Positions 503-35,186 of a stretch of 36,671 nt of DNA are shown here, one piece after another (position 1 is the first letter of the stretch; each line of letters opens with the position of its first letter). The position numbers and the translations under genes are program-made. This DNA comes from Thermoanaerobaculia bacterium (lineage in GTDB: Bacteria; Acidobacteriota; Thermoanaerobaculia; Multivoradales; UBA5704). The notes beneath the pieces are model-generated. The model made no database searches. It had not been told where the DNA came from and was given only the letters and a program-made list of their open reading frames with translations. The stretch is taken from assembly GCA_044226625.1 (NCBI GenBank), contig JBGAGQ010000062.1:1-36671 (forward strand). The letters are read 5' to 3'.

Positions 503-2497
503 TTAGGGCTCCGAGGCGAGAGCCTGCCGCACCTTTCCCGGATCGGCCACCACCGAGGCGCCGTGGAGGAGCCAGCGCCGCGCCTCGGCCGGGTCGCCGC
601 GCCGGCCCGCGCTCGCGGCGAGCGCGAGATACCCTCGGGTGAAACGAGGATCGACCTCGAGGGCCTTTCGATACGAGGCTTCCGCCTCCTCCCTCCGATC
701 GAGCGATTCCAAGGCTACGCCCCGGTAGTACCAAGCGGCGACCAGGTTGTCGCGCAACGCGACGGCTCGATCGAGGGTGGCGAGCGCCCCTTTCGGGTCG
801 TGTGGGACGAGAAGCAGACCGAGGTTGAACAGGCTTTCCGGTCGCGCCGGGGCACCGCTCTTCTCCCCGGCCGCGAGCACCGCGCGGAGCGTCGCGATCG
901 CCTCCTCGTCCCTGCCTTGAGCGGCCAGCGCGATGCCGAGCCATTCGAGCGCCAGCGGCCGCCCGGGAGAGCGGCCGAGGACTCCGCGGAGCGTCCGCTC
1001 CGCCGCCGCGAAGCGCCGAGCCTGGAGCTGCCCCTCCGCGAGGTCGAGATAGGGCTCGACCTCGGTAGGTTTCCCGAGATCGAGCATCGCCTCTAGGCGA
1101 TCGACCGCAGCGTCGCTCCGGACTGCGCGCACGGCCGTCGCCGCCCGGTAGACCTCGGCGAGCGCGCCGGGGACCCGGCCGGACTCGAGCAGGCGAAGAG
1201 CGGTGATCTCCGGGTCCTTTTCGGCGCGTGGGGCGACGAGATCGACTCCCGGTTTCGGGATCTGAATCTCGTGGTCGGTCATCACCGCGTGGACCACGTC
1301 GCTCGGCCGGCGCCGGGGCATGTGGCAAGTGACGCAATCGGCCGCGATCGTCGCGTTGGGACTCTCTTTGGCGATCCCGCACGCCTCGGGCTGATGTCCC
1401 TCGTGGCAGGCGAGGCAGACCGAGGCGTAATGCTCCGCGCGCTCGGTCGACGGGACCTTTCGGTGCGGATCGTGGCACGAGAGGCACGAGAGGTCTCCGC
1501 TTTTCACGTAGCAGCGGCTTTGGCGAAGCCGGTAGGCATGGTGGTTGATCTCGAACCGGCCGCCGGGCGCGACGCCCTCTTCTTCGACGTCGACCGCGAC
1601 CTGGTACTCCGCGAGATCCTGTCCGGGCCGAAACGACCAGTCTCCGACGCCGTACCGACGCAGCCCTTGGAGGGCGACCGACGGCTGGAGATGGCACTGG
1701 AAGCAGACGTCCTCCATCCGCGGCTTGGGCAAAGCGCCGGGATCGACGATTGCTTTTCGGACAGCCTCGCCTCCTTTCGGAGCGAGAATCGCGCGCCGGA
1801 CGTGCTCCGCCCCGGGACCGTGGCAGCGTTGGCAACCGATCCCCTCCGGGAGCCGTTCCGGGAACGTCTGCGGCGCGTCGTGGAAGTCGCTTCCGAGCGG
1901 CGCGTCCGGATAGGCGTCGTGGCAGAACATGCACTCCCGACGCACGCGGCGCCGGACGCCCTCGTGGTCGGGGCGGTCGAATCCGGGAGCCATCCCCCAG
2001 CGGCCCTCGAGGGCATACCAGGCGATCGGCAGTTGGTAGAGCTCGCCTCCTTCGGTTCGATAGAGGTAGGTCCGCGCGTGATTGCCCGAGCCCAGAATCC
2101 AGGCGACCTCGCGTTCCCAGACGTTGATCGGCCGGCCCGACAGATCCTTTTGGTCGCGGCGAAACCAGAGCCGATCGCCGCGCCAGGCCATCTCGTACGA
2201 CTCCTTCGACGCGGCATGGGTAAAACCGCCGGCCGCGAAGTCCTCGATCTTTGGGGCGGTGGCCGGGCGCGCGAACGAGCGCGCCATGCCCACCTGCTGA
2301 TAGGAGGTCCAGACCTCCCGGTGGCAGTCGGCGCAAACGCGGTCCTCGACGTAGCCCGGGGCCGCGCCCGTCGTGACCGCGATCCGCCGGGAGACGAGCG
2401 GGTCTGCGTCCGGCGCCGCCGCGCCGAGGGAACCCAGGCCTAATCCGAGAAAGAGAAGCCCGAGCAACCGAGGCCTTCGAATCCTGGTGAAACACAT
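503..2497 (-). CDS. Exported multiheme cytochrome c (c554-like) with C-terminal TPR repeats
   Basis: N-terminal signal peptide. Seven CxxCH motifs (CADCH, CMFCH, CQRCH, CFQCH, CLSCH, CLACH, CVTCH). C-terminal TPR-like helices (AWYYRGVALESLDRREEAEASYRKALEVDP). Confidence 0.85.
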   Translation of the reverse strand: MCFTRIRRPRLLGLLFLGLGLGSLGAAAPDADPLVSRRIAVTTGAAPGYVEDRVCADCHREVWTSYQQVGMARSFARPATAPKIEDFAAGGFTHAASKESYEMAWRGDRLWFRRDQKDLSGRPINVWEREVAWILGSGNHARTYLYRTEGGELYQLPIAWYALEGRWGMAPGFDRPDHEGVRRRVRRECMFCHDAYPDAPLGSDFHDAPQTFPERLPEGIGCQRCHGPGAEHVRRAILAPKGGEAVRKAIVDPGALPKPRMEDVCFQCHLQPSVALQGLRRYGVGDWSFRPGQDLAEYQVAVDVEEEGVAPGGRFEINHHAYRLRQSRCYVKSGDLSCLSCHDPHRKVPSTERAEHYASVCLACHEGHQPEACGIAKESPNATIAADCVTCHMPRRRPSDVVHAVMTDHEIQIPKPGVDLVAPRAEKDPEITALRLLESGRVPGALAEVYRAATAVRAVRSDAAVDRLEAMLDLGKPTEVEPYLDLAEGQLQARRFAAAERTLRGVLGRSPGRPLALEWLGIALAAQGRDEEAIATLRAVLAAGEKSGAPARPESLFNLGLLLVPHDPKGALATLDRAVALRDNLVAAWYYRGVALESLDRREEAEASYRKALEVDPRFTRGYLALAASAGRRGDPAEARRWLLHGASVVADPGKVRQALASEP

Positions 2498-19868: not shown

Positions 19869-19894
19869 CAGATGTCGCCCTCCGGGGCGACGCC

Positions 19895-20056
19895 TCAAAA
19901 CGCGGCATTGCATCGGCTGCAGTGATGGCTCCCGTCGTGGCCGGCTTCGCGGTCGCACGATCCCTGCCAAGAGTTCGGGCAGTCGCCGTGTTGCTGGCCG
20001 CATTCGGAACCGTAGCCGGGATGGGTTTCCTTCGGCTCCTTCGACGAAACGTTCAT
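19895..20056 (-). CDS. Cys/His-rich microprotein, 53 aa (not in ORF track)
   Basis: AGGAGGT RBS 7 nt before ATG 20056. MNVSSKEPKETHPGYGSECGQQHGDCPNSWQGSCDREAGHDGSHHCSRCNAAF*. Fills the gap between neighbouring genes without overlap; a GC hairpin (19874-19891) follows the stop. Confidence 0.7.
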   Translation of the reverse strand: MNVSSKEPKETHPGYGSECGQQHGDCPNSWQGSCDREAGHDGSHHCSRCNAAF

Positions 20057-20121
20057 GGCCTGGACCTCCTACCGATTCCAACCGGCGGCGAATCGCGGGG
20101 ATTCCAAGGTCGGCGGCCCGG

Positions 20122-21666
20122 CTACTCCCACTCGATCGTCGCGGGCGGCTTGCTCGTCACGTCGTAGACGACGCGGTTCACGCCCTTCACCTCGTTGACG
20201 ATCCGGTTCGCGACGCGGCCGAGCAGCTCGTACGGCAGCGGGCTCCAATCCGCGGTCATGAAGTCCTGGGTCTCGACGGCGCGCAGCGCGATCACGCTTT
20301 CGTAGGTCCGGAAGTCCCCCATCACGCCGACGCTCTTGACCGGCAGGAGGACGGCGAACGCCTGGCTGGTCTTGCCGTACCAACCGCTCTCGCGGAGCTC
20401 GTGGAGGAAGATCGCGTCCGCCTCCTGGAGCAAGGCCACCCGCTCCGCCGTCACCTCTCCCAGGATGCGCACCGCGAGCCCCGGGCCCGGGAACGGATGG
20501 CGGGAGATCAACGCCTCCGGCAGACCCAGCTCGCGGCCGAGCTGGCGCACCTCGTCCTTGAACAGGGAGCGGAGCGGCTCGACGAGCTCGAAACCGAGCT
20601 TCTCGGGCAGACCGCCCACGTTGTGATGCGTCTTGATCACCGCGGACGGACCTTTGACCGAGGTCGACTCGATCACGTCGGGATAGAGCGTCCCCTGGGC
20701 GAGGAACGAAAGCCCTTCGAGGCGCTTCGACTCGGCGTCGAACTCCTCGATGAACCGGTGGCCGATGATCTTCCGCTTCCGCTCCGGATCCTCGACGCCG
20801 GCAAGGGCGGCGAGGAAACGCTCGCCCGCCTCGACCTTGCGGATCGGAATCCCGAGCCCCCCTTCGAGAGCGCGGACGACCTCGGCCCCTTCGTTCTTCC
20901 GCAGCAGGCCGTTGTCGACGAACACCGGCACCGACCGCTCGCCGATCGCGCGGGCGAGCAGCGCCGCGACCACCGAGGAGTCGACGCCGCCCGAGAGCGC
21001 GCAGAGCACGCGCCCCTCCCCGACCCGCGCGCGCACCCGCTCGACCGCCTCTTCGAGGTAGGAGGCCATGTGCCAATCGCCGCGGGCGCCGCAGGCGCCG
21101 AACAGGAAGTTCCGCAGCAGCTCCGACCCCGAGACGGTGTGCGATACCTCGGGATGGAACTGAATGCCGTAGAGGCCACGGGTTCGATCTTCGAAAGCGA
21201 CGATCGGAACGCTCTCGGTGGATGCGGTCGCGACGAAGCCGGCGGGAAGCCCGCGCACGCGATCGCCGTGGCTCATCCAGACCGTCTCGCGGGCGGTCAA
21301 GCCGTCGAACAGCAGACCCGGATCGACGACGTCGATCTCGGCTCGGCCGTACTCGCGATGGGCGCTCGGATCGACCCCGCCGCCCAGCTCGTGCGACATG
21401 ACGTGCATGCCGTAGCAGATCCCGAGCACGGGGATGCCCAGCTCGAACAGCTCGCGCGGCGCGGTCGCCGCCCCCTCCTCGTAGACGCTCTGCGGCCCGC
21501 CCGAAAGGATCAGACCGATCGGCGCCCGTTTGCGGATCTCCTCGAGCGGCAGGTCGAAGGAGTGGACCTCGCTGTAGACCCGGTGCTCGCGGACGCGGCG
21601 CGCGATCAGCTGGGTGAACTGGCTGCCGAAATCGAGGATCAGGATCGTCTGGTGCTCGGTGCTCAT
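20122..21666 (-). CDS. guaA: GMP synthase (glutamine-hydrolysing)
   Basis: [59 protein letters not shown]; start at ATG 21666. Confidence 0.98.
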
Positions 21667-21692
21667 GCGCTCCTTTTTGGCGAAGCCTCGGG

Positions 21693-22727
21693 TCAGGGCT
21701 CCGATTCCGATTTGAGCTCGCGGGTCATCAGCTCGAGAACGGCCTGCCGCGGATCTTTGTCTTCGTAGAGGATCGCCACCGTCTGCCGGGTGATCGGCAT
21801 GTCGAGCCCCCCCTCGCGGCACTTCTCCGCGAGATGGAGGATCGCGAGCGAGTTGCGGACCCCCTCGGCCACCATCGGGGTGTCGGCGGTGATCTCGGCG
21901 AGCTTGCGCCCTTTGGCGAGCTCGATGCCGGTCCGCCGGTTGCGCGACAGGCCGCCGGTCGCCGTGAGCACGAGATCCCCGAGCCCCGTGAGCCCGGCGA
22001 ACGTGCGCGCGTCGCCACCGCAGGCGACGCCGAGCTTGGCGATCTCGTGCAGGCCGCGGGTGATCAGCGCGGCGAGCGTGTTCTGGCCGAAGCCGAGCCC
22101 CGTCGCCACGCCGGCCGCGATCGCGATCACGTTCTTCGTCGTGCCGCCGAGCTCGACCCCCACCAGGTCGCTCGACGAATAGAGCCGGAAATAGCGGGTC
22201 GAGAGCGTCTCGCGAATCTCGGTCGCGAGGTCGTGGTCGGCCGACGCGACCACCGCCGCGGTCGGCTGGTTCCGCGCGAGCTCGGCGGCGAAGCTCGGAC
22301 CGGAGAGTACCGCGAACCGCACCTGAAGCTCCGCCCGCGCCCCCTCTTCCGCCGCCACCGCGCTCATTCGGGCGAGCGTGTCCGGCTCGATTCCCTTGGT
22401 CCCCGAGATGACGATCGCCGGCCGGTCGGGGGCTCGCTCCTTCAACCGGGCGAGATGGTTGCGGAGCACCGAGCGGAAGCCGTGCGAGGGGATCACCACC
22501 AGGGTGAGATCGGCGTCGTGGACGTCGTCGAGGCGGGAGGTGGGCACGAGATTCGGCGGCAGCTCCACGTCGGGCAGGTACTCGGGGTTCGCCCGCTCGG
22601 CGGCCATCCTCGCGGTGAGCGCCTCGCTCCGCGCCCACAGGACCACCTCGTGACCTCCCGCTCCCGCGAAATGCACGGCGAGCGCCGTGCCCCAGGAGCC
22701 CGCGCCGAGGACGGCGACGCGGCTCAT
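21693..22727 (-). CDS. gpsA: NAD(P)H-dependent glycerol-3-phosphate dehydrogenase
   Basis: [47 protein letters not shown]; start at ATG 22727. Confidence 0.97.
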
Positions 22728-23356
22728 TCGCGACCTCCGCGCGGACCGCCGATGCGCCGCTCGTCCCCCGAGAGGAGCCGGCGCAGATTGCCGCGATGGG
22801 TGAGGAAGACGAGCAATGCGAGCCCGGCCGCCGCGGTCGCGTGCCAAGGTCCCTCCGAGCGCTGCCAGCCGAGCCGCTCGCAGAGCACGACCCAGAGCGG
22901 CAACGTGAGCGAAGCCGAGAGCGAGCCGAGCGAGACGTAGCGCGTGCGGGCGACGACGGCCACGAACAGGACCGCCGCGATGCCGAGCGCCGCCGGTGTG
23001 AGCACCGTCATCGCCCCCGCCGAGGTGGCGACGCCCTTGCCTCCCCGGCCCCCAAGGAACAAGGGGAAGACGTGGCCGAGGACGACCGCGAACGCCGCCG
23101 CAGCGGCGATCCCCGCGCCCGCGCCGAGCATCCTCGCCCCGGCGACCGCCACGGCTCCCTTGGCGAGATCGCCGACTAGGGCGATGCCGCCGGCCTTCTT
23201 GCCGGCGACCCGAAGCGCGTTGGTCGCCCCGGCGTTGCCGCTGCCGGCGGTCCGCAGGTCGCGCCCCACGAACCACCGGACCAGCAGGTAGGAAAACGAG
23301 ATCGAGCCGATCAGATAGGCCGCGGTGAGGACCGCCGCGGAGCGGAGGGGCGTCAC
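22724..23356 (-). CDS. plsY: Glycerol-3-phosphate acyltransferase PlsY
   Basis: [46 protein letters not shown]; GTG start behind AAGGAGG. Confidence 0.95.
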
Positions 23357-24096
23357 GCCTCCTCCTTCGGGACGTCCGCCGAATTCGTCGACCCGGATTC
23401 CACCTCGTCGGCCGGTTCGATCCCTTCGGCCGGTTCCGCGACCCCGAGGGGCATGCGCAGGAGCATCTCGTGCCGGCCGCCGCGGACCTTCGATTCGGGA
23501 CCGCCAGGGCCGTCGATCGCCCGGTTCCCTTCGCCCAGATGGCTCCGGTACAGCACCACTTCGGCCACTTCGAACGGCTCGCCGATCGGCCCGGCGAAGG
23601 CCGCCGAGAAGGTCGCGATCGCCGGCCGTGTCCACGGCTCGCGGCAGCGCGCGACCGTCAGGTGCGGCACGAACGGCCGGTCCTCGGGCGGATGGCCGAT
23701 CGCCTCCCCCGCCGCTGCGTTCAAGGCGGCGACCAGCTCGCGGAGCTCGGGGGGATTGTTCATCCCCACCCAGGCTACCCGCGCTGGCCGCGACGGGGGA
23801 AAGGTCCCCGCGCCTTCGAGCGCGAGGGTGAACGGCGTCCGCGGCGCGCACGCCGCGGCGAGCTCGCGGCCGAGCCACGGCACGAGATCGGACGCGACGT
23901 CGCCCAAGAACAGCACGGTGAGATGAAGCCCGCGGGGATCGACCCAGCGCGTCTTGCCTCCGGCCGAGAGCGATTCGCGTAGCGGCGCGATCCGCCGGCC
24001 GACCTCGGACTTCTGCTCGGCCGGCAGCTCGATCGCGACGAACAGGCGCCACGCCTCCGGCGGCGCGATCCGGGACTCCTCGTCGACGACGTTCAT
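23353..24096 (-). CDS. thpR: RNA 2',3'-cyclic phosphodiesterase (2H family)
   Basis: RLFVAIEL start and two HxT motifs (LHLTV, PHLTV); follows cinA with a 4-nt overlap. Confidence 0.92.
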   Translation of the reverse strand: MNVVDEESRIAPPEAWRLFVAIELPAEQKSEVGRRIAPLRESLSAGGKTRWVDPRGLHLTVLFLGDVASDLVPWLGRELAAACAPRTPFTLALEGAGTFPPSRPARVAWVGMNNPPELRELVAALNAAAGEAIGHPPEDRPFVPHLTVARCREPWTRPAIATFSAAFAGPIGEPFEVAEVVLYRSHLGEGNRAIDGPGGPESKVRGGRHEMLLRMPLGVAEPAEGIEPADEVESGSTNSADVPKEEA

Positions 24097-25370
24097 CTCG
24101 CCACCTCGTCCGAGCCGAACGCTTTGGGAGGCGGCAAGCCGAGCAACTTCCGGCGCAACATCTCGAGCGCCAGCTGGCTCGCCTGGGTCCGGACGAAATC
24201 GCGCCCGCCGGGGAAGCGCGCGCGCCGGTGCTCCACCCCTTCGGGACCGGCGAGTGCCAGATGGACGGTGCCCACCGGTTTCTCTTCGCTTCCCCCTCCC
24301 GGGCCGGCGACCCCGGTGACGCTCAACGCCCAGGTCGTCCCGAGGCGCGAGCGCGCCCCCTCGGCCATCGCCCGCGCGACCGGCTCGGAGACCGCGCCGT
24401 GCGCGGCGAGCATCTCTTCGGAGACGCCGAGAAATCGGGTCTTCCACTCGTTCGAATAGGTCACCACCCCGCCGAGGAAGTAGTCGCTGCTCCCCGGGAT
24501 CGCGGTGATCCGCTCGGCGAGCAGCCCGCCCGTGCACGATTCGGCGACGGAGAGCGTGGCCCCCGCCGCGCGCAGCAGCTCCCCCACCACGGTCGGCAGT
24601 TCCGCCTCTTCGCGGTCGGCGAAGGCCGCGTCGCCCGCGAACTCTTTCAGTCGCCCGACCATCGCCGCCAGGCGCTCGCGGCGCTCCTCCGCGGAGCCCT
24701 CGGCGGTCGCCTCGAGACGGATCTCCCCCGGCTTCGCGAGGATCGTGATGTTCTCGCGGCCGAACTCGTCGTAAGCGGGGGCGATCAGCTCCTCGACGCC
24801 CGATTCCGGCAAGCACGCGACCTTGACCACCGCGGTCTCGCGCCCGACGCCGCCCGAACGGGCGGCAAGGAACCCATCGAGATAGGAATCGATCATCCCT
24901 TCCAGCTCGTACGGCACGCCGGGGAAGAGCACGATCGTCTTGCCCTCGTGCTCGACCGCCATTCCGGGCGCGGAGCCGCGAGGATTCGGGATGACCGCTC
25001 CTCCCTCGACGAGCTCGGCCTGTTTGCGGTTGACCGCCGGCATGATCCGGCCGTAGGCGCGGAACCGCGCCTCGATCCCGGCGAGCACCTCGGGCACCAG
25101 CCGGAGCTCTCGTCCCAGCGCATGGGCCACGGCCTCGCGCGTCACGTCGTCCGCGGTCGGGCCGAGGCCGCCGGTGATCAGGACCAGATCGGCCCGCCGG
25201 AGGTGCGAGAGGATCTCGGCGGAGATTTCTTCGATCGAATCGCCCGCCACCGATTTCGCCCGCAGCTCATACCCATGGCGGAGCAGGACGGTGGTGAGAC
25301 GCAGAGAATTGGTGTCGAGCCGCCGGGTTCCGAGCAGCTCGGACCCGACCGCGAGAATCGCTGCACGCAT
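24093..25370 (-). CDS. cinA: Competence/damage-inducible protein CinA (MoCF domain + NMN deamidase)
   Basis: AVGSELL, DTNS, TGGLGPTADD, PGVP, AESCTGG, GSSDYF, GAVS, TGVAGPGGG; start at ATG 25370. Confidence 0.95.
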   Translation of the reverse strand: MRAAILAVGSELLGTRRLDTNSLRLTTVLLRHGYELRAKSVAGDSIEEISAEILSHLRRADLVLITGGLGPTADDVTREAVAHALGRELRLVPEVLAGIEARFRAYGRIMPAVNRKQAELVEGGAVIPNPRGSAPGMAVEHEGKTIVLFPGVPYELEGMIDSYLDGFLAARSGGVGRETAVVKVACLPESGVEELIAPAYDEFGRENITILAKPGEIRLEATAEGSAEERRERLAAMVGRLKEFAGDAAFADREEAELPTVVGELLRAAGATLSVAESCTGGLLAERITAIPGSSDYFLGGVVTYSNEWKTRFLGVSEEMLAAHGAVSEPVARAMAEGARSRLGTTWALSVTGVAGPGGGSEEKPVGTVHLALAGPEGVEHRRARFPGGRDFVRTQASQLALEMLRRKLLGLPPPKAFGSDEVAR

Positions 25371-25511
25371 CTCGAGATGATAGCGCAGCAGACGAGGCGG
25401 CCCGGCTCCCTCGGCCGGCCGGACCGCGCCGCCCGGCAGGAGGGCGTTCGATACACTTCTCTCGATTTCCCGCGCCGGCGACCGGGCCGGCCGGACCGGA
25501 CGATCAAACGG

Positions 25512-26444
25512 ATGGCGCACAACCACTCCCACGCCCACGGGGCTTCGCACGCCCACTCCCACGCGCCCGCAGATTTCGGGCGCGCGTTCGCGCTCGGCAT
25601 TGCGGCGAACCTCGCCTACGTCGCGCTCGAGGGGGGGTGGGGCCTTTATTCGGGCTCGCTCGCGCTGATCGCGGACGCCGGCCACAACCTGGGCGACGTC
25701 CTCGGGCTCGGTCTCGCCTGGGGGGCGAGTGTGCTCGCCCGACGTCAGCCGACGCCGAAGCGGACCTACGGCCTAAGGCGGGGCTCGATCCTCGCGGCGC
25801 TCGGCAACGCGCTGCTGCTCCTGGTCGCGGTCGGCGGCATCGCGGCCGAGGCGATCGAGCGCCTCCGCCACCCCGCGCCGGTCGCCGGCGGTCCGATCGT
25901 CGCGGTCGCCGCCGTGGGCATCGCGGTCAACGTCGGCACGGCCCTGCTGTTCCTTCGCGGCCGGCGCGACGACCTCAACGTCCGCGGCGCGTTCCTCCAC
26001 ATGGTGGCGGATGCCGCCGTCTCGCTCGGCGTCGTCGTGGCCGGAATCGCGATCTGGCGAACCGGAATCGACTGGATCGACCCCGCCGTGAGCCTCGTCG
26101 TCGCCGCGGTCATCCTCGCCGGCACCTGGGGCCTCCTGCGCGAATCGCTCGACCTCGCCCTCGACGCCGTGCCGCCCGGCATCGAGCTCTCTTCGATCCG
26201 CGCGTTTCTCGGCGCCCTACCGGGAGTTTGCGCGGTTCACGACCTGCACGTCTGGCCGATGAGCACGACCGAGGTCGCCCTCACCGCCCATCTCGTCATC
26301 CCCGGACCACGCCCGGCCGACTCCTTCTACGACCGCGCGGCCCGAGGTCTCCACGACCGCTTCGGCATCGAGCACACCACCCTCCAGATCGAGTGCGGCG
26401 ACGACGACAGCCCCTGCCGCCACGAGCCGGACGAGGTGCTCTGA
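25512..26444 (+). CDS. Cation diffusion facilitator, Zn/Co/Cd type (CzcD/ZitB-like)
   Basis: His-rich N-terminus, SLALIADAGHNLGD and AFLHMVAD (HxxxD sites), VHDLHVW, HTTLQIE. Confidence 0.93.
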   Translation: MAHNHSHAHGASHAHSHAPADFGRAFALGIAANLAYVALEGGWGLYSGSLALIADAGHNLGDVLGLGLAWGASVLARRQPTPKRTYGLRRGSILAALGNALLLLVAVGGIAAEAIERLRHPAPVAGGPIVAVAAVGIAVNVGTALLFLRGRRDDLNVRGAFLHMVADAAVSLGVVVAGIAIWRTGIDWIDPAVSLVVAAVILAGTWGLLRESLDLALDAVPPGIELSSIRAFLGALPGVCAVHDLHVWPMSTTEVALTAHLVIPGPRPADSFYDRAARGLHDRFGIEHTTLQIECGDDDSPCRHEPDEVL

Positions 26445-26493
26445 AGGCAAGGGATCACGCCCACGGATCGAAACCTTTTCGACCGAGCCTCCG

Positions 26494-26525
26494 AAAAGCC
26501 CGCGGCGGAGCCTTCCGCCACGGGC
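26494..26525 (-). terminator. Intrinsic terminator between convergent CDF and Cys-rich genes
   Basis: On the minus strand, hairpin GCCCGTGGCGGA-AGGC-TCCGCCGCGGGC followed by TTTT. Confidence 0.6.
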
Positions 26526-26547
26526 CTCCCGAGAACGATGGACCGCC

Positions 26548-26886
26548 TTACTGCTGGTCGGGACCGCCGAAGCAGTTGGCGCAGCTGTAGCTGATGAATC
26601 CGTGCTTGTGGACCTGGCCGCCCGAGAGAGTGCAGTTGTCGAGCGTCGCCGAGTCGTTGCACGAGCGGTCGTAGCCGCGGTTCACGCAATCGCCGTCCGA
26701 GGTGGTGTTGAGATCGTAGATCAGCGCCGACGTGAGAGGGCTGCAGGTGGGACCGTGGACCGTCGTCTCGTAATAGAAGACCGTATTCGAGAAGCAGGTG
26801 CAGGTCTCGGCGCTAGCGGGGCGGGAGCTGAGCAGAAGGGCGAATCCGAGTGCGGCCAACGCGAGGACGATACGACTCTTCAACAT
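26548..26886 (-). CDS. Small secreted Cys-rich protein (8 Cys)
   Basis: Signal peptide ending ASA; mature ETCTCF...CANCFGGPDQQ; AAGGAAG upstream. Confidence 0.75.
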   Translation of the reverse strand: MLKSRIVLALAALGFALLLSSRPASAETCTCFSNTVFYYETTVHGPTCSPLTSALIYDLNTTSDGDCVNRGYDRSCNDSATLDNCTLSGGQVHKHGFISYSCANCFGGPDQQ

Positions 26887-27012
26887 CGCGACTTCCTTTC
26901 CAAGTCGCTCCTCTCGAGACTCGTATCCGGTATACGAAGATTCTGCCGCAAGGTTTGACCGATCGGCGGCGGAACCACCGCGCTCCGCCGCCCCGGCTGC
27001 TATCCGGCTAGC

Positions 27013-27333
27013 CTAGCTCCGACAACAACTCGAGCAGCAGCGCCCGTCGCCGACGCACTGGCACCAGCAGAACTGTCCCTGACAGACGATGCCACCACAG
27101 AAGCAGCCGGCCTCATCGATCCTCGCGTCGAACAGGTCGCCCCAATCGGCGGCGCCTTTCGCCGGTTCGATCGGCGCGTTCGGGGACACGTTCGGCGCGG
27201 GAGCGGCAAAGAGGGCCGGCGCGGCGCAGGAGGACGCCGGCGCGAGAGAAGCGTCCGATTGGGCTTGGGCGACGGCGGGGAGTAGAACGGCGAGGGCGAG
27301 GACCAGCAGGGTGAAGGGGAGGAATCGGTTCAT
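27013..27333 (-). CDS. Secreted prepropeptide with 10-Cys C-terminal domain
   Basis: AAGGGAG RBS and ATG 27333; signal peptide ending AQA; Pro/Ala/acidic spacer; GCFCGGIVCQGQFCWCQCVGDGRCCSSCCRS. Confidence 0.75.
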   Translation of the reverse strand: MNRFLPFTLLVLALAVLLPAVAQAQSDASLAPASSCAAPALFAAPAPNVSPNAPIEPAKGAADWGDLFDARIDEAGCFCGGIVCQGQFCWCQCVGDGRCCSSCCRS

Positions 27334-27427
27334 CGAGGATCTCCCTTGAGGTTGCGGGGTGCTAGAACCCCTCACCTTGTCGGGTGCGCGCCCGGCAGCG
27401 GAGCGCGCCTCGTGGATCCGCCGCCGG

Positions 27428-27931
27428 TTACTCCCCCGCCGCGAGCTCCTGGATCAGCTCCGTCGCGACTCGGCCGGACCACGCCTCGATTTCCTGTTCG
27501 ACCTCTTGATTGGCTTTCGGCATCTCGCGCAGGAAGACCTTCCCAGCGGGCGACTCGTAGAAGGCGAGCAGGCCGCGGATCTCTTCCAGGGAATAGTGGC
27601 GGTCGTAGACGGCGACCACGATGTCGAAGATCTCGCGCGGATCGACCTTCTCTCGCAGCCGTACCCAGAGCAGCTCGGGCGTGTCGGGCGAGGCCTTCCG
27701 GAGCATGTCGATCATCTGATCGACGTTCTCCTGGGCGTTACGGGTGGCGCCGGTCGCGTCGATCACCTGGCGGATCAGCGCCGCTTTCGTCGGGTCGATC
27801 CGGGCTGTTACCGCCGGACGTTTGGGCTCGGATGCGGCGGCCGGTCCGGTGGCGAGGGAGAGGAGGGCGAGGACGATCAGCGGCGCAAGGCCGCGTTGCA
27901 GGCGAAGGAGGGCTTGGGTCGCTCTGGGCAT
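27428..27931 (-). CDS. DUF2059 domain exported protein
   Basis: Signal peptide; VYDRHYSLEEIRGLLAFYESPAGK motif. Start uncertain (27931 or 27976). Confidence 0.8.
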   Translation of the reverse strand: MPRATQALLRLQRGLAPLIVLALLSLATGPAAASEPKRPAVTARIDPTKAALIRQVIDATGATRNAQENVDQMIDMLRKASPDTPELLWVRLREKVDPREIFDIVVAVYDRHYSLEEIRGLLAFYESPAGKVFLREMPKANQEVEQEIEAWSGRVATELIQELAAGE

Positions 27932-28025
27932 CGGCGGAGTTCCTGGCGGGTTGGACGAGATCGAAATGGAGCTCATGCTCGCCGAAAGAGACTCCTTTCC
28001 CCGGCCGAAGTATTAGATTGGAGCC

Positions 28026-28475
28026 ATGACCACGTTCACCTTCCGCCCGATCGGCTTCGTCCGCAGCCCCTACTCTTCGACCTCCGACATCCCGCGAGGA
28101 CTCGGCGCCGAGCACCATGCCGAGGGAACCCTCGAGCTCCTGCCCGAGCTCGAGGCGGGCCTCGCCGACGTCGAGGGGTTTTCCCACCTGTTCGTTCTCT
28201 GGGTCTTCGATCGCTCGAAGGGCTTCGACCTCACGGCGTACCCGCCTACCGACGATCGCCCGCACGGGGTCTTCGCCACCCGGTCGCCGCAGCGGCCGAA
28301 CCCGATCGGCTTGACGGTCGTCGAGCTGCTCGGTCGCGAGGGGAGCGTGCTCCGCGTCCGCGGCGTCGACATGCTCGACGGTACGCCGATCCTCGATTTG
28401 AAGCCCTACCTTTCGAGCGTCCCGGCGGAGAGCCTCCGCCGCGGCTGGCTCGACGAGGCGGAGCGGCGGAAGTAG
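28026..28475 (+). CDS. tsaA: tRNA m6t6A37 methyltransferase TrmO/TsaA-like
   Basis: PIGFVRSP, GFSHLFVLWVFD, GVFATRSPQRPNPIGLTVV, DMLDGTPILDLKPY. Confidence 0.92.
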   Translation: MTTFTFRPIGFVRSPYSSTSDIPRGLGAEHHAEGTLELLPELEAGLADVEGFSHLFVLWVFDRSKGFDLTAYPPTDDRPHGVFATRSPQRPNPIGLTVVELLGREGSVLRVRGVDMLDGTPILDLKPYLSSVPAESLRRGWLDEAERRK

Positions 28476-28490
28476 GGCTAGCTCGACGAG

Positions 28491-28620
28491 CAGGCTGCCG
28501 AAAAACTCCTCCCACACGTCGCAGAGTTCCCGAGGACGACCCCGAGTCTGTCTGAGCAAAGCGAGTACGAGGGGCGCCCGCAGGGAACCTCGTGCGACGA
28601 AGGAGTTTTTCAGCAGCCTG
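28491..28620. mobile_element. MITE-like non-autonomous element / long inverted repeat (130 bp)
   Basis: Terminal IRs CAGGCTGCCGAAAAACTCCT / AGGAGTTTTTCAGCAGCCTG (19/20), further internal complementarity, flanked by CGAG and CTAG; no transposase. Confidence 0.65.
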
Positions 28621-29493
28621 CTAGCGCGAAGCTTTCCCCTTGTAGACGACGCCGAGTCGGAAGGTCGGTCCGAGCGCGATGTTCCGCGCCGAGGCGGCAC
28701 CGTCGATCGCCGTCTGGAAACTCCAGCGCTCGGACGCATCCCAGGTGAGGCTCGGCCCGAGCGCGAGGTAGGCGACGTCGTTGCCGAGACCCGCGGGCAC
28801 CGCGACCGGCCGCGTCTCGGGATCCTGGTACGGCTCGACGCCCCAGACGCGGGCGGCGGAGATCCAGCGGCCGTCGCGCCCGAACCGGTATCCCAGCTCT
28901 GCGCGATAGACGATGCCGTCGACGAAGCCCTTCCCCCGGGCGAGATGCCCCAGCTCGCCGAACCCGTAGCCTTTCCCCTCGGGACCGAACGAGCGACCGA
29001 GCGAAAGCGAGGTCTCGAGCTCCCAAACGCCGGAACCGGCGGGAAGCTCGCCCAAGCCCGCCGTCTCGTCGCCGGTCGGCGCCTGGACGATCCCCCGCGC
29101 CGCGAGGCGCCACGGGCCGCTCTCCCAGAGCTGCCCCTGGAGCCCGAGCTGGAGATCGCCTACGCCGCGCTCCGTTCCGAAGCCGTCGAGCTCCGACCGA
29201 CGCACGATCGGCGCCCGGAAGATCGCCGTCCATCGATCGCCGAAGCCGTAGGTCGCATACAGCGAGAGCTCGTCGAGCGTGAAATCGGCGATGTCCACGT
29301 CGTGCCCGTCGGCGTCGGCCAACCGATCCGCGGAAAGGCGAGCCCAGCTCCACTGGAGGTACAGCTCCCCCGGCTCGTTCTTCCAAGGACCGCCCCAGGC
29401 GGCCGAGGACGCGAGCATCGAGAGGACGGTCGCAAGCGCAAGACGGAGGGCGGCGGGACGGAGGGGCGTAAAGATCGTAAGGCACGAGCTCAT
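28621..29493 (-). CDS. Putative outer-membrane beta-barrel protein (MetA-pathway/SphA-like transporter fold)
   Basis: Signal peptide; alternating amphipathic strands; YATYGFGDRWT, GVGDLQLG, APTGD, GSGVWE; ends FRLGVVYK. Start re-assigned to ATG 29493. Confidence 0.65.
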   Translation of the reverse strand: MSSCLTIFTPLRPAALRLALATVLSMLASSAAWGGPWKNEPGELYLQWSWARLSADRLADADGHDVDIADFTLDELSLYATYGFGDRWTAIFRAPIVRRSELDGFGTERGVGDLQLGLQGQLWESGPWRLAARGIVQAPTGDETAGLGELPAGSGVWELETSLSLGRSFGPEGKGYGFGELGHLARGKGFVDGIVYRAELGYRFGRDGRWISAARVWGVEPYQDPETRPVAVPAGLGNDVAYLALGPSLTWDASERWSFQTAIDGAASARNIALGPTFRLGVVYKGKASR

Positions 29494-29599
29494 GGATGGA
29501 CCCCCTTTTCGTAGCGGCATCTTAACCTCGGCGCGTTCGATCGTAACGAAACGCCCGCTCCTTCGCCCGTCCGAAGAGAGGCTATCGAAGGAGGTTTCC

Positions 29600-32500
29600 A
29601 TGAAACGTCATCTCCGCGGCGTCCGCGCGTTGGTTTCCACGTTGCTTTTTTCGGCGCTCGCAGCGCCCACGTTCGCGACGATCGAGGGGACCACCTGGTT
29701 TCCGCTCGGTCCCGCGCCGATCGACGGATTCTTCGCCGGCGGCACCACCGGCCGCGCGACGGCCATCGCCGTCAACCCGGCCAATCCCGACGAGATCTGG
29801 CTGGGCACCGCGACGGGCGGAGTCTGGCATTCGCTCGACTCGGGGGCGAACTGGGAACCGGAATCGGATCGCGAGGACGCGCTCGCGATCGGCGCGATCA
29901 CGCTCGACGGATGCAACGCCGCGGGCTGCGCCGTCATCTATGCCGGCACGGGGGAGAACGCGATCCGGCGCGACACCTACTACGGCGCCGGCCTGCTGAT
30001 CGGCGCCAGCACCGGCGGCGAGATCCCGATCTTCGTCTGGACCCAGCGGACCGGCGCGCCGTTCGATTTTCGCCAGGGATCGATCCAGGACGTGGTGCTC
30101 GATCCGACCACCTCGGGTGCCTCGAAACGAATCTTCGTCACGCTGTCGAGCGGGGTCACGCTCGGCGCGCCCGAATCGACGGTGACCGCCCCCGCACCGA
30201 CCGGCGGCTACGGCATCTACCGCTCCGACGACAACGGCGCGAGCTGGTCGCAGGTGACGGTCGCAGGCACGAGCGGCGCGAAACCCACCGATCTCAAGAT
30301 TCACCCGACCGATCCCCTTACGATGTTCGCCGGTTTTCTCGGCCGCGGGGTCTTTCGCTCGACCGACGGCGGAGCGAGCTGGTGCCCCTTGAACGCCGGC
30401 ATCGCGCTGCCGGCCGGCTGCCCGGCGCAGCAGCTGCCCAACGTCGGCTCGACGACGTTCGACCACGTCGAGGTCGCGATCGCCCCGAGCGACCCGCAGG
30501 TCGTCTACGCCTCGTTCGGCATGTGCGCGGACCGGCTGCTCCAAAACTGCCGTCCGGCGATCTTCCGCTCCGCCGACGGCGGAGCCACCTGGACGGCGAA
30601 GCTCACCGGCAACCCGAACGACGGCGGCGCTCAGGCGGGATACAGCCGCTACACCCACGCGCTCGCCGTCGATCCGACGAACCCGAACGTCCTGTTCCTG
30701 GGCGGCGTCTCCCTATGGCGTTCGACCGACGGAGGCGGCTCGTTCTCCGTCTCCGACGCGAATCTCGCGCCCGGCCCCGGATCGTCGGTGATCCACTCCG
30801 ACCATCGCGAGGTGGTGTTCCATCTCTCCTCGACGAGCCGCGCCTACACGACCGGCGACGGCGGCTTCGCCGTCTCCACCGACGGGGGGCTGCACTGGAC
30901 CCCGAGAAACGACGACCTACAGATCACCGGTTTCCAGAGCATCGCCTCGTCTCCCCTGGTCACCGCGGTGATCGGTGCGAGCCAGGACAACGCGGCGCAG
31001 CTGTTTTCCGGCAGCCGGCGCTGGAAGCACCTTCCCTGCTGCGGCGACGGAGGGTTTTCGTTTCTCGACTTCGACGACCCGCTCAAGATGTACGCCGGCA
31101 CCAACTTCGGCGCGCTCGAGCGGTCAGACGACGGCGGGACGTTCTGGAGCGGCATCAACTCCGGCATCCCCTCGACCGATCCGCGCCTGTTCTACGCACC
31201 GTTCGTCCAAGCCCCCTCGGGAGCCCATCCCCTCTTCTTCGGCACCAACCGCCTGTGGAAGAGCATCAACGACGGCGGCGCGTGGAGCGACGTGAGCCCC
31301 GTGCTCGCGACCGGCACCTCGGCGGAGATCGTCACCGCGAATTCGACCTCGGCCCACATTGCGGCGGGCACGGGCCAGAACGTGATCACCGCGATCGGCG
31401 TGGCGCCGAGCGACGTCGACCGGATCTACGTCGGCTACTACCTGGGTCAACTGTTCCGCTCGAACGGCGCACCCTGCAACACCGCCGCCTGCTGGATTTC
31501 GATCTCGGCCGGCCTGCCCGCGGCGCCGATCTCGCGCATCGCCGTCCATCCGACCCAGCCGGGCACGGCGTACGTCACGTTTTCGGGTTTCGGCAGCTTT
31601 CCCCGAGTCTGGAAGACCACCAACTCCGGAGCCTCGTGGAACGCGGTCTCGACCGGCCTGCCGGCGGGCGTTCCGGCGACGACCGTGAGCCTCGAGCCGA
31701 GCGCGCCGGAGCGCGTCTACGTGGGCCTCGACAGCGGTCCGGATGGCGCGAGCCTGTTCCGGAGCACGAACGGCGGCGGCTCGTTCTCGGCGTTCTCGTC
31801 CGGCCTTCCGAACGTACCGATCGAAGAGATCTCGATCGACGAGACCCACGGCCGAATGTACGTAGGAACGCACGGCCGCGGCGCCTTCGCGCTCGGCAAG
31901 CCCTTCATCAGCAATTTCGAGGGGTGCATCGGCGGGAGCGTCTGGGACATCCCCATCTTCGGGCACAACTTCCTGCCCAACCAGCCGAGTTGCACGATCT
32001 CGGTGCTGCAATCGAACGGCTCGATCTGCGCCTCCGGCACGGTCGACGCGATGGGAGGGACCGTCCGCACGAGCGCGAACGGCGAGCTCGAAACCAGCCG
32101 GCTCAACCTGTGGAACGGCAAGCAGGTCGCCTGGGCCTGCTTCAACGGCGACTGCGTCGGCGACACGCCGATCGAGCAGTGCCAAGACGACGCGGACGGC
32201 GACGGCGACCGCGATCCCCTCTCGACCATCGCGGTGGCTTGCGGACCGGAGATCGCGATTGCGACGGTCACCGGTTGTCCGCCGCTCGACAACCCGCCGA
32301 GCAGCTTCGTCGAGCTCGGCGTCTCGGGCTTCCCGTCGTTGCTCCCGGCCGGCTTCGCGGCCGAGCTGCCCGCCGATCGCGCCGGCCTCGCGCCGACTGG
32401 CGGGGTGCTCCACCTGGTCGCGAGCGTCCAGCGCGCGGTGGGAACCGAATCGCTCTGCGCGATCGCGGTCCCCTACCAGCTCGGCGAGTCGGACGAGACG

Positions 32501-33808
32501 GTCCTCGCCCGCGCCCGCGACGCGATCGCCGCCAGCCCCACCTGCGCCTCCCACGGCGTCGAGGCGCTGCTCGATCCGGGGAACCCGGGATCCTCCGAAG
32601 ACCTCTTCCCGCGACGGCCGCGCCTCCTCTTGCGCGCGCCCAGCCTCGCCGGCAGCCAGCTGATCACCGCTCTCCACGCCGATCCCGGAGGAAGCGCCGG
32701 CTCCTGCGTGCGGATCGACGGCGTCGGGGTGCCCGTCCTCAACCAGATCCAGGTGCTCAAGACGACGTTCACCACGCCGCCGGAAGGCGCCGCGGGCGGC
32801 GGCCTCACGCTCGTCGAGCAAACCCCGCTTGGCGCCTGCTCGCTCGACATCCCGACCGTGGCCGGCGAAACCGGCGCGCAGATCGCCGGAGCGGTCGACG
32901 CCGCGGTCCACGCCGTCGGGATTCCCGGACCCCATCCGGGTTGCCCCGCAGACCGCAACGCGCGCGACATCACGAGCCGGATGGGCTTCCTGCTCGCCGT
33001 CCACGCCTCGTCGCTCGAGCTTTGCATCCGCGACCCGAAGGTCGGCTTCGACATCCGCACCAAAGATCTGATGAACGCCCACCCGATCGCCGATGCCGGA
33101 GGCGACCGCGTGCTCGGAACGGGCACTGTCGCCCTGGACGGCTCGGCGAGCGCCGATTCCGACTCGAGCCCAGGCACGAACGACGACATCTCGAGCTTCG
33201 AATGGTTCGACGTCTCGACCGGCTCGCCCGTCTCGCTCGGCACCGGCGAGACCCTCTCGGTGCCGCTCGGGCTCGGCCTCCATCGCATCCGGTTGCGCGC
33301 GACCGACAAGGGCGGCTTGGCCGACACGGACGAGATCCTGGTCACCGTCGGAGGCGCCGGGACCGGCGGGACGAACAGCCCCTGGTTCGGCAGCTTCCAC
33401 GTCGGCTCCACCCATCCGCTCGGCGACCTCAACCGAATCGCCGATGCCAACGTCCACGTCCGCGCCGATCTCGGATACCGCCTCGCCGACCGCTTCCGCC
33501 TCGATCTCCAAGCGGGCTTCTCGCAGCTCACCGCCGAAGCCGGCGCCGGCATCGATCATCCCCACTTCTTCGCCCTGTCCTTCGACGGTCAGCTGCTCTT
33601 CCCCCAGCCGAGCGGCAACGCCTTCTTCCTCGAAGCCGGACCGGGCCTCTACTGGCGCAACGGCGGCGGCTCCGATCTCGGCTTCAACCTGGGCTTCGGG
33701 TACCAGCTGCCGATTTCTTTCCGTCACACCTTGGAGATCGGCGCGGACTATCACCGGGTGCCGGGGCAGGAGGAGTTCGTGACCTTGGCGTTGGGTGTGC
33801 TGTTCTGA
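29600..33808 (+). CDS. 1402-aa exported protein: Asp-box (BNR/VPS10/GH74-like) propellers + Cys-rich region + PKD domain + C-terminal OM beta-barrel
   Basis: AAGGAGG RBS and signal peptide; many SxDxGxxW repeats; GTGE and THGRG motifs; NAHPIADAGGD...LDGSASADSD...LRATDKGG PKD pattern; about 143-aa amphipathic C-terminus ending ALGVLF. Confidence 0.85.
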   Translation: MKRHLRGVRALVSTLLFSALAAPTFATIEGTTWFPLGPAPIDGFFAGGTTGRATAIAVNPANPDEIWLGTATGGVWHSLDSGANWEPESDREDALAIGAITLDGCNAAGCAVIYAGTGENAIRRDTYYGAGLLIGASTGGEIPIFVWTQRTGAPFDFRQGSIQDVVLDPTTSGASKRIFVTLSSGVTLGAPESTVTAPAPTGGYGIYRSDDNGASWSQVTVAGTSGAKPTDLKIHPTDPLTMFAGFLGRGVFRSTDGGASWCPLNAGIALPAGCPAQQLPNVGSTTFDHVEVAIAPSDPQVVYASFGMCADRLLQNCRPAIFRSADGGATWTAKLTGNPNDGGAQAGYSRYTHALAVDPTNPNVLFLGGVSLWRSTDGGGSFSVSDANLAPGPGSSVIHSDHREVVFHLSSTSRAYTTGDGGFAVSTDGGLHWTPRNDDLQITGFQSIASSPLVTAVIGASQDNAAQLFSGSRRWKHLPCCGDGGFSFLDFDDPLKMYAGTNFGALERSDDGGTFWSGINSGIPSTDPRLFYAPFVQAPSGAHPLFFGTNRLWKSINDGGAWSDVSPVLATGTSAEIVTANSTSAHIAAGTGQNVITAIGVAPSDVDRIYVGYYLGQLFRSNGAPCNTAACWISISAGLPAAPISRIAVHPTQPGTAYVTFSGFGSFPRVWKTTNSGASWNAVSTGLPAGVPATTVSLEPSAPERVYVGLDSGPDGASLFRSTNGGGSFSAFSSGLPNVPIEEISIDETHGRMYVGTHGRGAFALGKPFISNFEGCIGGSVWDIPIFGHNFLPNQPSCTISVLQSNGSICASGTVDAMGGTVRTSANGELETSRLNLWNGKQVAWACFNGDCVGDTPIEQCQDDADGDGDRDPLSTIAVACGPEIAIATVTGCPPLDNPPSSFVELGVSGFPSLLPAGFAAELPADRAGLAPTGGVLHLVASVQRAVGTESLCAIAVPYQLGESDETVLARARDAIAASPTCASHGVEALLDPGNPGSSEDLFPRRPRLLLRAPSLAGSQLITALHADPGGSAGSCVRIDGVGVPVLNQIQVLKTTFTTPPEGAAGGGLTLVEQTPLGACSLDIPTVAGETGAQIAGAVDAAVHAVGIPGPHPGCPADRNARDITSRMGFLLAVHASSLELCIRDPKVGFDIRTKDLMNAHPIADAGGDRVLGTGTVALDGSASADSDSSPGTNDDISSFEWFDVSTGSPVSLGTGETLSVPLGLGLHRIRLRATDKGGLADTDEILVTVGGAGTGGTNSPWFGSFHVGSTHPLGDLNRIADANVHVRADLGYRLADRFRLDLQAGFSQLTAEAGAGIDHPHFFALSFDGQLLFPQPSGNAFFLEAGPGLYWRNGGGSDLGFNLGFGYQLPISFRHTLEIGADYHRVPGQEEFVTLALGVLF

Positions 33809-33856
33809 TCGACGGCGCCTTCTCCCGGAACGTTGACGCGGTTACAGTTCCTCGCC

Positions 33857-34669
33857 ATGGACAAAGACATGAAGCGGCTCCTGGCCCTGGTTCGCGCCGG
33901 GTGCTATGCCTGGTCGGGCACCAAGCGCGATCTGGAGAGGGCGTTAGAGATCGGGCACGGCCGGCTCGAAGAGTGCCTCAACGGAACGCGCGAGCTGCGG
34001 GTCTGCCACCTCGTCAACCTGGCTCGGCTGCTCAAGGTCAAACCCTCCGACTTTCTACGCCTGGCCTATCCGGAGGACGAGGCTGCGGCGCCCAATCAGC
34101 TGGAAGAATGGATCGGCGAACCCAAACCGCCGTTCGCTCGCAAGAACCTCCCGCCGGTGGCTCCGGAAATGGCGGAGGAGATTCGGAATCTGATTCGCGA
34201 AGAGCTGGCGAAGGCGAAGCCGAAAGCCGCTTTGGTCTCTGAACGGCGGCTCTCCGCCTCGAACAACGGGTACCGGAGCCAGGAAGCGGTCATCCGTTTC
34301 AGAAAGCGCGCTGCCGTCCCGAAACGGGAACTTCCGTCCCAGCACGGGAGCATTCGTCCCAGAATGGGAACTTCCGTCCCAGAATGGGAACATTCGTCCC
34401 AGGACGGGAATTTCTGTCCCAGGACGGGAACTTCTGTCCCAGGACGGGAACTGCCGTCCCAGGACGGGAACTGCCGTCCCGGGACGGGAACTTCTGTCCC
34501 GGGAAGGGAACTTCTGTCCCAGAACGGGAACTTATGCCGCAGCCAGCGGCTCTACGCAGCCGCATCGAGCTTCACTCCGAGGAAACCGGCCATCGGTCAC
34601 CGCTCGGGATCGTCAGCGTCGAGAGAAGCCGGGCGCCCGCCGAAAGAGACGTCCTTTCTCAGAAAGTAG
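33857..34669 (+). CDS. XRE/Cro-like HTH protein; reading frame continues through a tandem repeat
   Basis: KRDLERALEIGHGRLEECLNGTRELRVCHLVNLARLLKVKPSDF is HTH-like. Only the first ~125 aa look protein-like; the 3' end is uncertain. Confidence 0.6.
   Translation: MDKDMKRLLALVRAGCYAWSGTKRDLERALEIGHGRLEECLNGTRELRVCHLVNLARLLKVKPSDFLRLAYPEDEAAAPNQLEEWIGEPKPPFARKNLPPVAPEMAEEIRNLIREELAKAKPKAALVSERRLSASNNGYRSQEAVIRFRKRAAVPKRELPSQHGSIRPRMGTSVPEWEHSSQDGNFCPRTGTSVPGRELPSQDGNCRPGTGTSVPGRELLSQNGNLCRSQRLYAAASSFTPRKPAIGHRSGSSASREAGRPPKETSFLRK
34311..34533. repeat. Tandem array of 11 x 20-bp units, consensus CTTCYGTCCCAGGACGGGAA
   Basis: Exact 20-bp period from 34311 to 34530 with no indels or spacers; GTCCC and GGGA invariant in all 11 units. 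Confidence 0.97.
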
Positions 34670-34784
34670 ATCTCCCTGCCGTAGTGAGTCCAGCTTCGGG
34701 GAGAACGCTCCAACGAAAGCCACTTCTCTCGGGCTTCCGAAGGGATTGCTGGACAGGCTCCGCCGCGCGTGGAACACTGCGGGC

Positions 34785-35186
34785 GTGGCGCGCAATTCTC
34801 GGTTCTCCAGGATTCTCTTGGTGCTCGCCTTCCTCGGCTCGATCGGCTCGCTCTCCGCAGGCTGCCTTTGCGCGGAGATGCGTTCGACGCCCAGCGGCGT
34901 GAGCGGCGCGGCGGCGCGACCGGCGATGTCTTGCCATGTTCCGGAGAGACAAGACGGGGGCGGCCGGCTCCTTGCGCGCTGCTGCTGCGAGATGTCGCCC
35001 GGGGCTCCTTCGGCGGTCGATCCCCATCGCGCGTCGACGCTGCCCGAGCGTTGGAACGCCGCCGTCGCCGAGTCCGCCATGGTTCCAACGGCCCGTCTGC
35101 CGCGCTTCGAGGGCCATGGCGACCTCGGCGGCCATCGAATCGATCGGGCGCCCCCACCGAGCTTCAAGAACCCGCTGCGCATTTGA
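34785..35186 (+). CDS. Cys-rich exported leader protein with C-terminal RAPP motif (DUF2946/CruR/CutF-like)
   Basis: Signal-like N-terminus; CLC, SCH and CCC clusters; RAPPP encoded at 35145-35159, then SFKNPLRI*; directly upstream of TolC. GTG 34785 chosen as start. Confidence 0.65.
   Translation: MARNSRFSRILLVLAFLGSIGSLSAGCLCAEMRSTPSGVSGAAARPAMSCHVPERQDGGGRLLARCCCEMSPGAPSAVDPHRASTLPERWNAAVAESAMVPTARLPRFEGHGDLGGHRIDRAPPPSFKNPLRI

Follow-up and report, generated by a model that had tools for sequence, protein, structure and literature searches.

Among animal secreted peptides, the prepropeptides of α-defensins, hepcidin, and conotoxins are laid out as a signal peptide, an anionic pro-piece, and a cysteine-dense C-terminus, with the cationic mature peptide of mammalian α-defensins containing six cysteines in the arrangement C-x-C-x(3-5)-C-x9-C-x9-CC. 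Metallothioneins also have a high content of cysteine, which is found in CxC and CC motifs alongside few or no aromatic residues and builds metal-thiolate clusters. In bacteria, the class II-IV cis-defensins are described (PMC11561630) as having a signal peptide followed by an unstructured acidic/hydrophobic N-terminal tail, which in class IV is 21-53 residues long. These peptides were mined by combining a cysteine regular expression, C x(2,18) C x(3) C x(2,12) C x(4,17) C x C, with the requirement for a signal peptide as judged by Phobius, and class IV includes one member with extra disulfides and one from an unidentified member of the Acidobacteria (PMC11561630). The bufferins (PMC12452194) are cysteine-containing peptides with Sec signals, and have MNIO and DUF2063 genes adjacent to their own. 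The first-pass annotation of the locus described below had called such an architecture rarely described in bacteria, which is a fair statement, though the class II-IV cis-defensins and the bufferins (PMC11561630, PMC12452194) already offer precedent.

Layout of the ten-cysteine reading frame

Here, the window refers to the whole 36,671-nt stretch of DNA that was analysed. On its minus strand we find a short open reading frame (P0001) with the following features in and around it.

27340..27347, minus strand: Shine-Dalgarno-like AAGGGAGA, by direct reading, with 6 nt between its end and the ATG
27013..27333, minus strand: the whole P0001 open reading frame, 106 codons and a TAG stop, by translation
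27262..27333, minus strand: signal peptide, residues 1-24, with a predicted signal peptidase I site after AQA (direct reading and a crude filter)
27109..27261, minus strand: Ala/Pro-rich tail, residues 25-75, predicted to be disordered (composition and pLDDT)
27016..27108, minus strand: ten-Cys module, residues 76-106 (translation and a Cys-density scan)
26958..26997, minus strand: GC-rich hairpin, a possible terminator without a U-tract, seen in the MFE fold and in the centroid fold alike

Translation bears out the three-part layout proposed earlier for this reading frame, namely a Sec signal ending in AQA, an anionic tail of about 50 residues, and a Cys-dense C-terminus. The first 24 residues, MNRFLPFTLLVLALAVLLPAVAQA, comprise one Arg, an 18-residue uncharged hydrophobic stretch, and an A-Q-A site. 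Next to these, the 51-residue tail contains 15 Ala, 7 Pro, and 5 Asp, has a net charge of -5, and ends in the stretch DWGDLFDARIDEA. It also holds a lone eleventh cysteine, Cys36, which is absent from the earlier description and makes the number of cysteines in mature P0001 odd. The remaining residues 76-106, GCFCGGIVCQGQFCWCQCVGDGRCCSSCCRS, have a net charge of +1, and both the count of 10 Cys in 31 residues and the framework given in the first-pass annotation are exact, the latter being x1-C-x1-C-x4-C-x4-C-x1-C-x1-C-x5-CC-x2-CC-x2. This core, 32% Cys by composition, thus has an even number of cysteines in three CxC motifs and two CC pairs, with Gly-rich loops and with aromatic and aliphatic residues between the cysteines (2 Phe, 1 Trp, Ile, and Val, but no His). 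At the junction of tail and core (IDEA|GC) there is no recognisable cleavage motif, nor is there a basic processing site ahead of the core. Release of the core as a peptide of about 3 kDa would be speculative, with no homologues from which a conserved boundary could be read. Outside of the coding region, the GGGAG core of AAGGGAGA is 7 nt upstream of the ATG by direct reading, and the hairpin begins 16 nt past the stop codon. A role for this hairpin in termination is possible, with the z-score for the whole 134 nt being only -1.5 and with the consensus terminator scan listing a sole terminator-like site that lies inside the coding region rather than at the hairpin. A sigma-70 promoter scan returned 0 sites, and Rfam matched positions 26300-28100 only with a microRNA model (E 0.46-0.81) at far under its gathering score.

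The cysteine density of the core is more than chance. In fact, the share of Cys across all six translated frames of the window is just 1.8%, and stop-free 31-residue stretches with at least 6 Cys occur in two places, these being the P0001 core, which has 10, and an off-frame stretch (10719-10811), which has 6, such that the density of the core is unique in the window. Off-frame reading frames in the window are instead rich in Arg, Ala, Gly, and Pro. Moreover, positions 26900-27400 yielded 0 rows in Tandem Repeats Finder with a minimum score of 30, and so repeat DNA is no explanation for the density of cysteines.

An AF2 model of P0001 was made from the single sequence and has a mean pLDDT of 57.7. 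While a helix is placed in the signal region (residues 5-21), pLDDT falls below 50 at residues 25-54, 56-65, and 69-71 of the tail region. Outside of the signal, the core has the best confidence, which is still low, averaging 63-71 per block for residues 71-100 and 57 for residues 101-106, and is sketched as two strands (78-85 and 88-94) followed by a helix (97-103). For comparison with the CS-αβ fold, in which disulfides tie a helix to a two-stranded sheet, there is then only this weak strand-strand-helix order, with pLDDT block means of 57-71, and a Foldseek search of the model against the PDB gave no match (best E 7.4). We take the model as a weak sketch and not as evidence.

Putting the layout together, our best explanation, tentative and a little short of an even chance, is that P0001 is the product of a lineage-restricted gene and an unmodified Sec-exported disulfide-rich mini-protein with a disordered acidic tail. 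Here, Sec export would remove the 24-residue signal after AQA to leave a mature protein of 82 residues, made up of the 51-residue disordered acidic tail and the 31-residue ten-Cys module. The latter would fold outside the cytoplasm as a compact unmodified mini-domain with up to five disulfides, in which, if the AF2 sketch is followed, a β-hairpin bearing the three CxC motifs would pack on a short helix bearing CCxxCC. The acidic tail may keep the protein soluble or neutral, and may or may not be cut off. By analogy with the anionic-tailed bacterial defensin-like peptides, we infer that P0001 might have an extracellular role as a binder or antagonist of high stability, with microbial competition as one possible setting. 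A bolder version, in which P0001 founds an undescribed bacterial class of Sec-exported five-disulfide peptides with a CxC hairpin before a CCxxCC helix and an anionic disordered pro-piece, is distinctly unlikely in our estimation, but if true would mean that a bacterium (Thermoanaerobaculia) arrived independently at the animal 'prepropeptide toxin/defensin' design.

When set against the bacterial precedents, P0001 is like the class IV cis-defensins (PMC11561630) in having a Sec signal, a 51-residue acidic tail (-5), and a small C-terminal Cys-rich domain. By direct reading and the crude filter, its signal peptide comes without a transmembrane segment, and its tail falls within the 21-53 residues of class IV while also being acidic and, with a pLDDT mostly below 50, apparently unstructured. 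However, the cis-defensin regular expression has no match in P0001, and matches only the reversed sequence, which is biologically meaningless. Unlike the arrangement in the described cis-defensins (PMC11561630), the order in P0001 is inverted, with the CxC motifs first and the CxxxC-type spacing last, and the core has ten cysteines rather than 6-8. Database searches also gave no sequence or fold match, with class IV being compared here by its description. On this analogy, P0001 resembles class IV in layout only and is not a member.

Membership in the defensins or conotoxins, whose architecture the first-pass annotation had likened to that of P0001, does not hold up, as neither the whole protein nor the core has a Pfam match at E<=10, the CS-αβ expression does not fit, and the core has a charge of +1. 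Admittedly, P0001 is like the animal α-defensins, hepcidin, and conotoxins in its layout, its C-x-C-x4-C opening, and the CC pairs near its end. Yet unlike in α-defensins, there are ten cysteines, of which the first three spacings alone agree, together with the low charge and the lack of a Pfam family. Unlike in conotoxins, the Cys framework could not be matched to a named one, and there is neither a Pfam conotoxin family at E<=10 nor, among 1.84 billion representative proteins, any hit besides two repeat proteins that were judged spurious. The resemblance to these animal peptides is convergent, if there is any.

If made and folded as proposed, P0001 would add a ten-Cys scaffold to the few disulfide-rich secreted bacterial peptides, its source being an acidobacterial class that is uncultured and has been little studied. 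In that event, it would also be another case of the signal and anionic-tail layout arising outside animals, and disulfide-rich scaffolds are of interest for stable antimicrobials or binders. Since P0001 is one copy without relatives, no strong claim is possible, and for now it is a candidate worth synthesising and testing rather than a biological finding.

Coding signals and the search for relatives

P0001 is probably a real coding gene. Its GC content at codon positions 1/2/3 is 0.645/0.589/0.813, and the GC3 of 0.81, compared with 0.83-0.91 in six neighbouring genes, is high separately in the signal, tail, and core. With a codon model trained on the 16 window genes having Pfam matches, the P0001 frame scored +0.14 bits per codon and was the best of six, with the other five at -0.19 to -0.84. 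Of 311 in-frame windows taken from known genes, only 10% score lower than this, 10% of 1555 off-frame windows score higher, and the core segment on its own scores -0.32; taken alone, the codon score is ambiguous. The core uses 6 TGC and 4 TGT codons for cysteine, and this TGT share of 4/10, against 4/72 in the other (training) genes of the window (binomial P = 0.0015), suggests a foreign or young sequence. As the window is about 68% GC and has many long spurious reading frames, the length of the P0001 frame is uninformative as to whether it is coding.

A crude signal-peptide filter, applied to window reading frames of at least 60 codons, was passed by 6 of 1082 start sites, P0001 included. These six sites belong to five reading frames, four of which look real, namely P0001, the downstream neighbour P0004 (two starts), a lipoprotein-like frame, and a cytochrome/TPR protein, while the fifth is antisense to a CDF efflux gene. 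Without P0001, moreover, the genes flanking it would be 541 nt apart. Other ways of accounting for the reading frame were tried and rejected. A frameshift product is countered by the alternative minus-strand frame over the core (27000..27209), which has a GC3 of 0.59 and an Arg-rich translation. A lipoprotein fits poorly, given that Cys36 lies 14 residues past the hydrophobic core and after a charged residue, with the preceding ASS making a poor lipobox. Likewise, the hydrophobic positions before AG misfit the motif of a double-glycine leader peptide.

To the extent of the searches made, P0001 is a strict orphan, known from one contig alone. Pfam returned 0 families at E<=0.1, and still 0 at E<=10 for the whole protein and for the 45-residue C-terminus, and NCBIfam returned 0 models at E<=1, leader models included. 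A word-indexed search of 5.8 billion clustered proteins gave 52 candidates from which the query alone was returned, and when residues 62-106 only were used against the same clusters, the single candidate was again the query. An exhaustive phmmer search of 1.84 billion representatives found three proteins at E<=0.001, these being the query, P0002, and P0003, with the two non-self matches having E values of 1.5e-4 and 5.8e-4. Both were judged to be chance matches and rejected as relatives, P0002 being a eukaryote-type tandem-repeat protein that ends in an adenosine deaminase fragment and P0003 a eukaryote-type protein with chitin-binding Peritrophin-A repeats. In fact, the individual repeats of P0002 share 34-41% identity with P0001 over 29-41 columns, at a single-pair E of 2e-4 or worse, and its library-level score arises because six repeats are summed. 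As for the remaining collections, the PDB sequence search had as its sole match a signal-peptide look-alike (E 2.9), the best score in the protein atlas for the whole protein was 0.80, which is under the level that shuffled proteins also reach, and the core had no usable match to the named clusters of the atlas. PHROGs gave three weak rows (E 0.037-0.63) over the signal and tail, which we take as noise, and no match was found with PADLOC or by tblastn against plasmids and phages. We also found no description of this peptide in the literature searched, in which Thermoanaerobaculia and cysteine-rich together led only to an unrelated paper. Being without homologues, P0001 has no conservation, dN/dS, or covarying Cys framework to draw on, and for want of detectable relatives, any defensin-like or metal-binding function is guesswork so far.

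Neighbourhood and the window-specific segment

The genes around P0001, together with the point at which similarity to related loci ends, are as follows.

24093..25400, minus strand: cinA
25536..26444, plus strand: CDF efflux gene (Pfam Cation_efflux, 6.5e-38, and ZT_dimer)
26548..26886, minus strand: P0004, the downstream neighbour, a secreted protein of 112 aa with 8 Cys
26916..26918, no strand: synteny break by blastn, where similarity to L001 and L002 ends about 95 nt beyond the P0001 stop codon
27428..27976, minus strand: DUF2059 protein
28026..28475, plus strand: TrmO-like gene
Beyond the TrmO-like gene: an unassigned 326-aa reading frame, then a Sortilin/BNR and PKD protein of about 1400 residues
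Window end: outer-membrane efflux (OEP) gene

The rest of the window is housekeeping in nature (hemB, aminotransferase, dnaJ, clpB, DEAD helicase, guaA, and plsY), and nothing near P0001 is evidently a gene for immunity, a transporter, or a protease. For P0004, we found a family of nine members, in which the eight relatives share 57-83% identity, all 8 Cys of the mature part are invariant, and the block around NRGYDRSC is likewise invariant across the nine; no Pfam or NCBIfam family matches it. When modelled by AF2 with the alignment, P0004 has a pLDDT of 77 and an α/β fold without a PDB match at E<=0.001.

The two loci found by searching genome_contigs with the P0004 alignment, L001 and L002, both titled as Thermoanaerobaculia MAGs, were compared with the window by blastn. 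Here, window positions 18416-25388 match L002 with 79-88% identity, positions 26547-26917 (P0004) match both L001 and L002 with 77-79%, and positions 35139-36671 (the OEP gene) match L001 with 77%. P0001 is absent from both related loci even though each keeps P0004, and tblastn of P0001 against them gave a best E of 0.026 in the low-complexity tail. Upstream of P0004, L001 and L002 instead have a DJ-1/PfpI-type gene on the other strand. From these correspondences, about 8.2 kb (~26918 to 35138) is specific to the window, with P0001 as its first gene. This segment contains P0001, the DUF2059 and TrmO genes, the 326-aa reading frame, and the BNR/PKD protein of about 1400 residues, and stands in place of some 1.5 kb with the DJ-1/PfpI gene between the same flanking genes in L001. 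Gene order differs on both sides of P0004 in all three genomes. A mobile element as the carrier of the segment was considered and rejected, since neither 26916 nor 35138 has direct or inverted repeats flanking it, and no mobile-element genes were seen within the segment.

That P0001 might be non-functional, i.e., a chance or very young reading frame at a recombination junction with no stable product, is the alternative that fares best, and we regard it as unlikely. It would agree with P0001 being a singleton in every search, missing from 2/2 related loci, and placed about 95 nt inside the window-specific segment, as well as with its intermediate codon score, its atypical TGT use, and the frequency of long spurious frames in DNA of this GC content. 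Against this, a Shine-Dalgarno sequence, an ATG, a textbook signal peptide of a kind rare in the window, and a hairpin past the stop codon are all found together, the P0001 frame is the best of six, and the ten cysteines in 31 residues are without a counterpart.

Some further elements were observed in passing. In a tandem array at 34324..34533, between the BNR/PKD gene and the OEP operon and near the far end of the segment, a partly palindromic unit of 20 nt is repeated 10.5 times with 86% matching. An inverted repeat (28489..28510/28601..28622) of 22 nt, 95% complementary and with 90 nt between its arms, lies in the space separating the convergent TrmO-like gene and 326-aa reading frame. Directly upstream of the OEP efflux gene, both the window (34746..35186, plus strand) and L001 (5670..6065, minus strand) have a lipoprotein-like reading frame with an LSAGC lipobox-like sequence and a conserved triple-Cys, for which there is no NCBIfam family. 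The OEP cluster of L001 extends further to a multicopper oxidase carrying Met-rich repeats, a composition suggestive of copper resistance.

Possible metal binding or enzymatic modification

The first-pass annotation had also raised a metal-chelating role for P0001 from a nearby Zn CDF gene. While this gene is real, as its Cation_efflux and ZT_dimer matches attest, it is convergent with P0001 on the opposite strand, P0004 lies between the two, and it is missing at this position in both L001 and L002. With the adjacency being convergent, interrupted, and not conserved, the argument for a metal link is weak. Nonetheless, one could envisage P0001 as an extracytoplasmic metal-thiolate peptide, whose exported Cys module stays reduced and buffers periplasmic Zn, Cd, or Cu in the manner of a secreted metallothionein. 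For this, the three CxC motifs and two CC pairs of the core do resemble metallothionein motifs, the end of the CDF gene is 570 nt from P0001, and the OEP gene, 7.6 kb off, is preceded by the triple-Cys lipoprotein-like frame and in L001 belongs to the cluster reaching the multicopper oxidase; a reduced module would be plausible if the host is an anaerobe. However, cysteines are normally oxidised upon Sec export, the aromatic and aliphatic residues and the lack of His are unusual for metallothioneins, no metallothionein or other Pfam family matches at E<=10, and the CDF link is conserved in 0/2 relatives; we regard this reading as unlikely. In the manner of metallothioneins, a group that includes PmtA (PMC11237414), the P0001 core is small, with Cys in CxC and CC motifs making up about 30% of it, but it differs from them in its Sec signal, long tail, and core aromatics, and in having no family match.

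Least probable, and very much so, is that P0001 is a Sec-signal-bearing precursor whose cysteines are modified, as in bufferins, by enzymes encoded elsewhere in the genome: such signals do occur on Cys-containing precursors of MNIO-modified peptides, and an L002 reading frame rich in Cys and Thr near the same spot weakly matches a class I lanthipeptide leader, but in bufferin clusters (PMC12452194), the precursor gene comes directly before the enzyme genes, whereas Pfam detected 0 peptide-modifying enzyme domains (MNIO (DUF692), DUF2063, radical SAM, LanB/C/M, or YcaO) among the 30 other reading frames scanned in the 36.7-kb window. Being short and Cys-containing, with a Sec signal and possible metal binding, P0001 is like the bufferins and other MNIO-modified peptides (PMC12452194; 10.1101/2024.03.18.585515). 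Unlike the bufferins, it has no MNIO or DUF2063 gene adjacent to it, its downstream gene being P0004, and neither Pfam nor NCBIfam gave the DUF2282, Buf_6/12_Cys, or EGKCG-repeat signature or another precursor family, and its Cys density is much higher. As regards lanthipeptides and other leader-dependent peptides, P0001 has no NCBIfam leader model at E<=1, in addition to the lack of LanB/C/M, YcaO, and radical SAM genes in the window. An unmodified, disulfide-bonded module stays our preferred, if tentative, reading of P0001.

The L002 reading frame itself (1970..2164, plus strand), with the P0004 homologue on one side and cinA on the other, has 64 codons and no signal peptide. Its leader-like N-terminus has a terminal Gly run, and the core that follows, about 27 residues long, contains 7 Cys and numerous Thr/Ser. 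Its match to NF038153 (class I lanthipeptide leader) has an E of 0.0079 and 16.3 bits, against a cut-off of 22. No maturase gene was found within the 11 kb of L002 sequence, and a lanthipeptide-like frame on its own in this way may mean that precursor genes are scattered in the lineage. Elsewhere in the window, 503..2497 (minus strand) encodes a 664-aa protein with a signal peptide, paired CXXCH multihaem motifs, and C-terminal TPR repeats.
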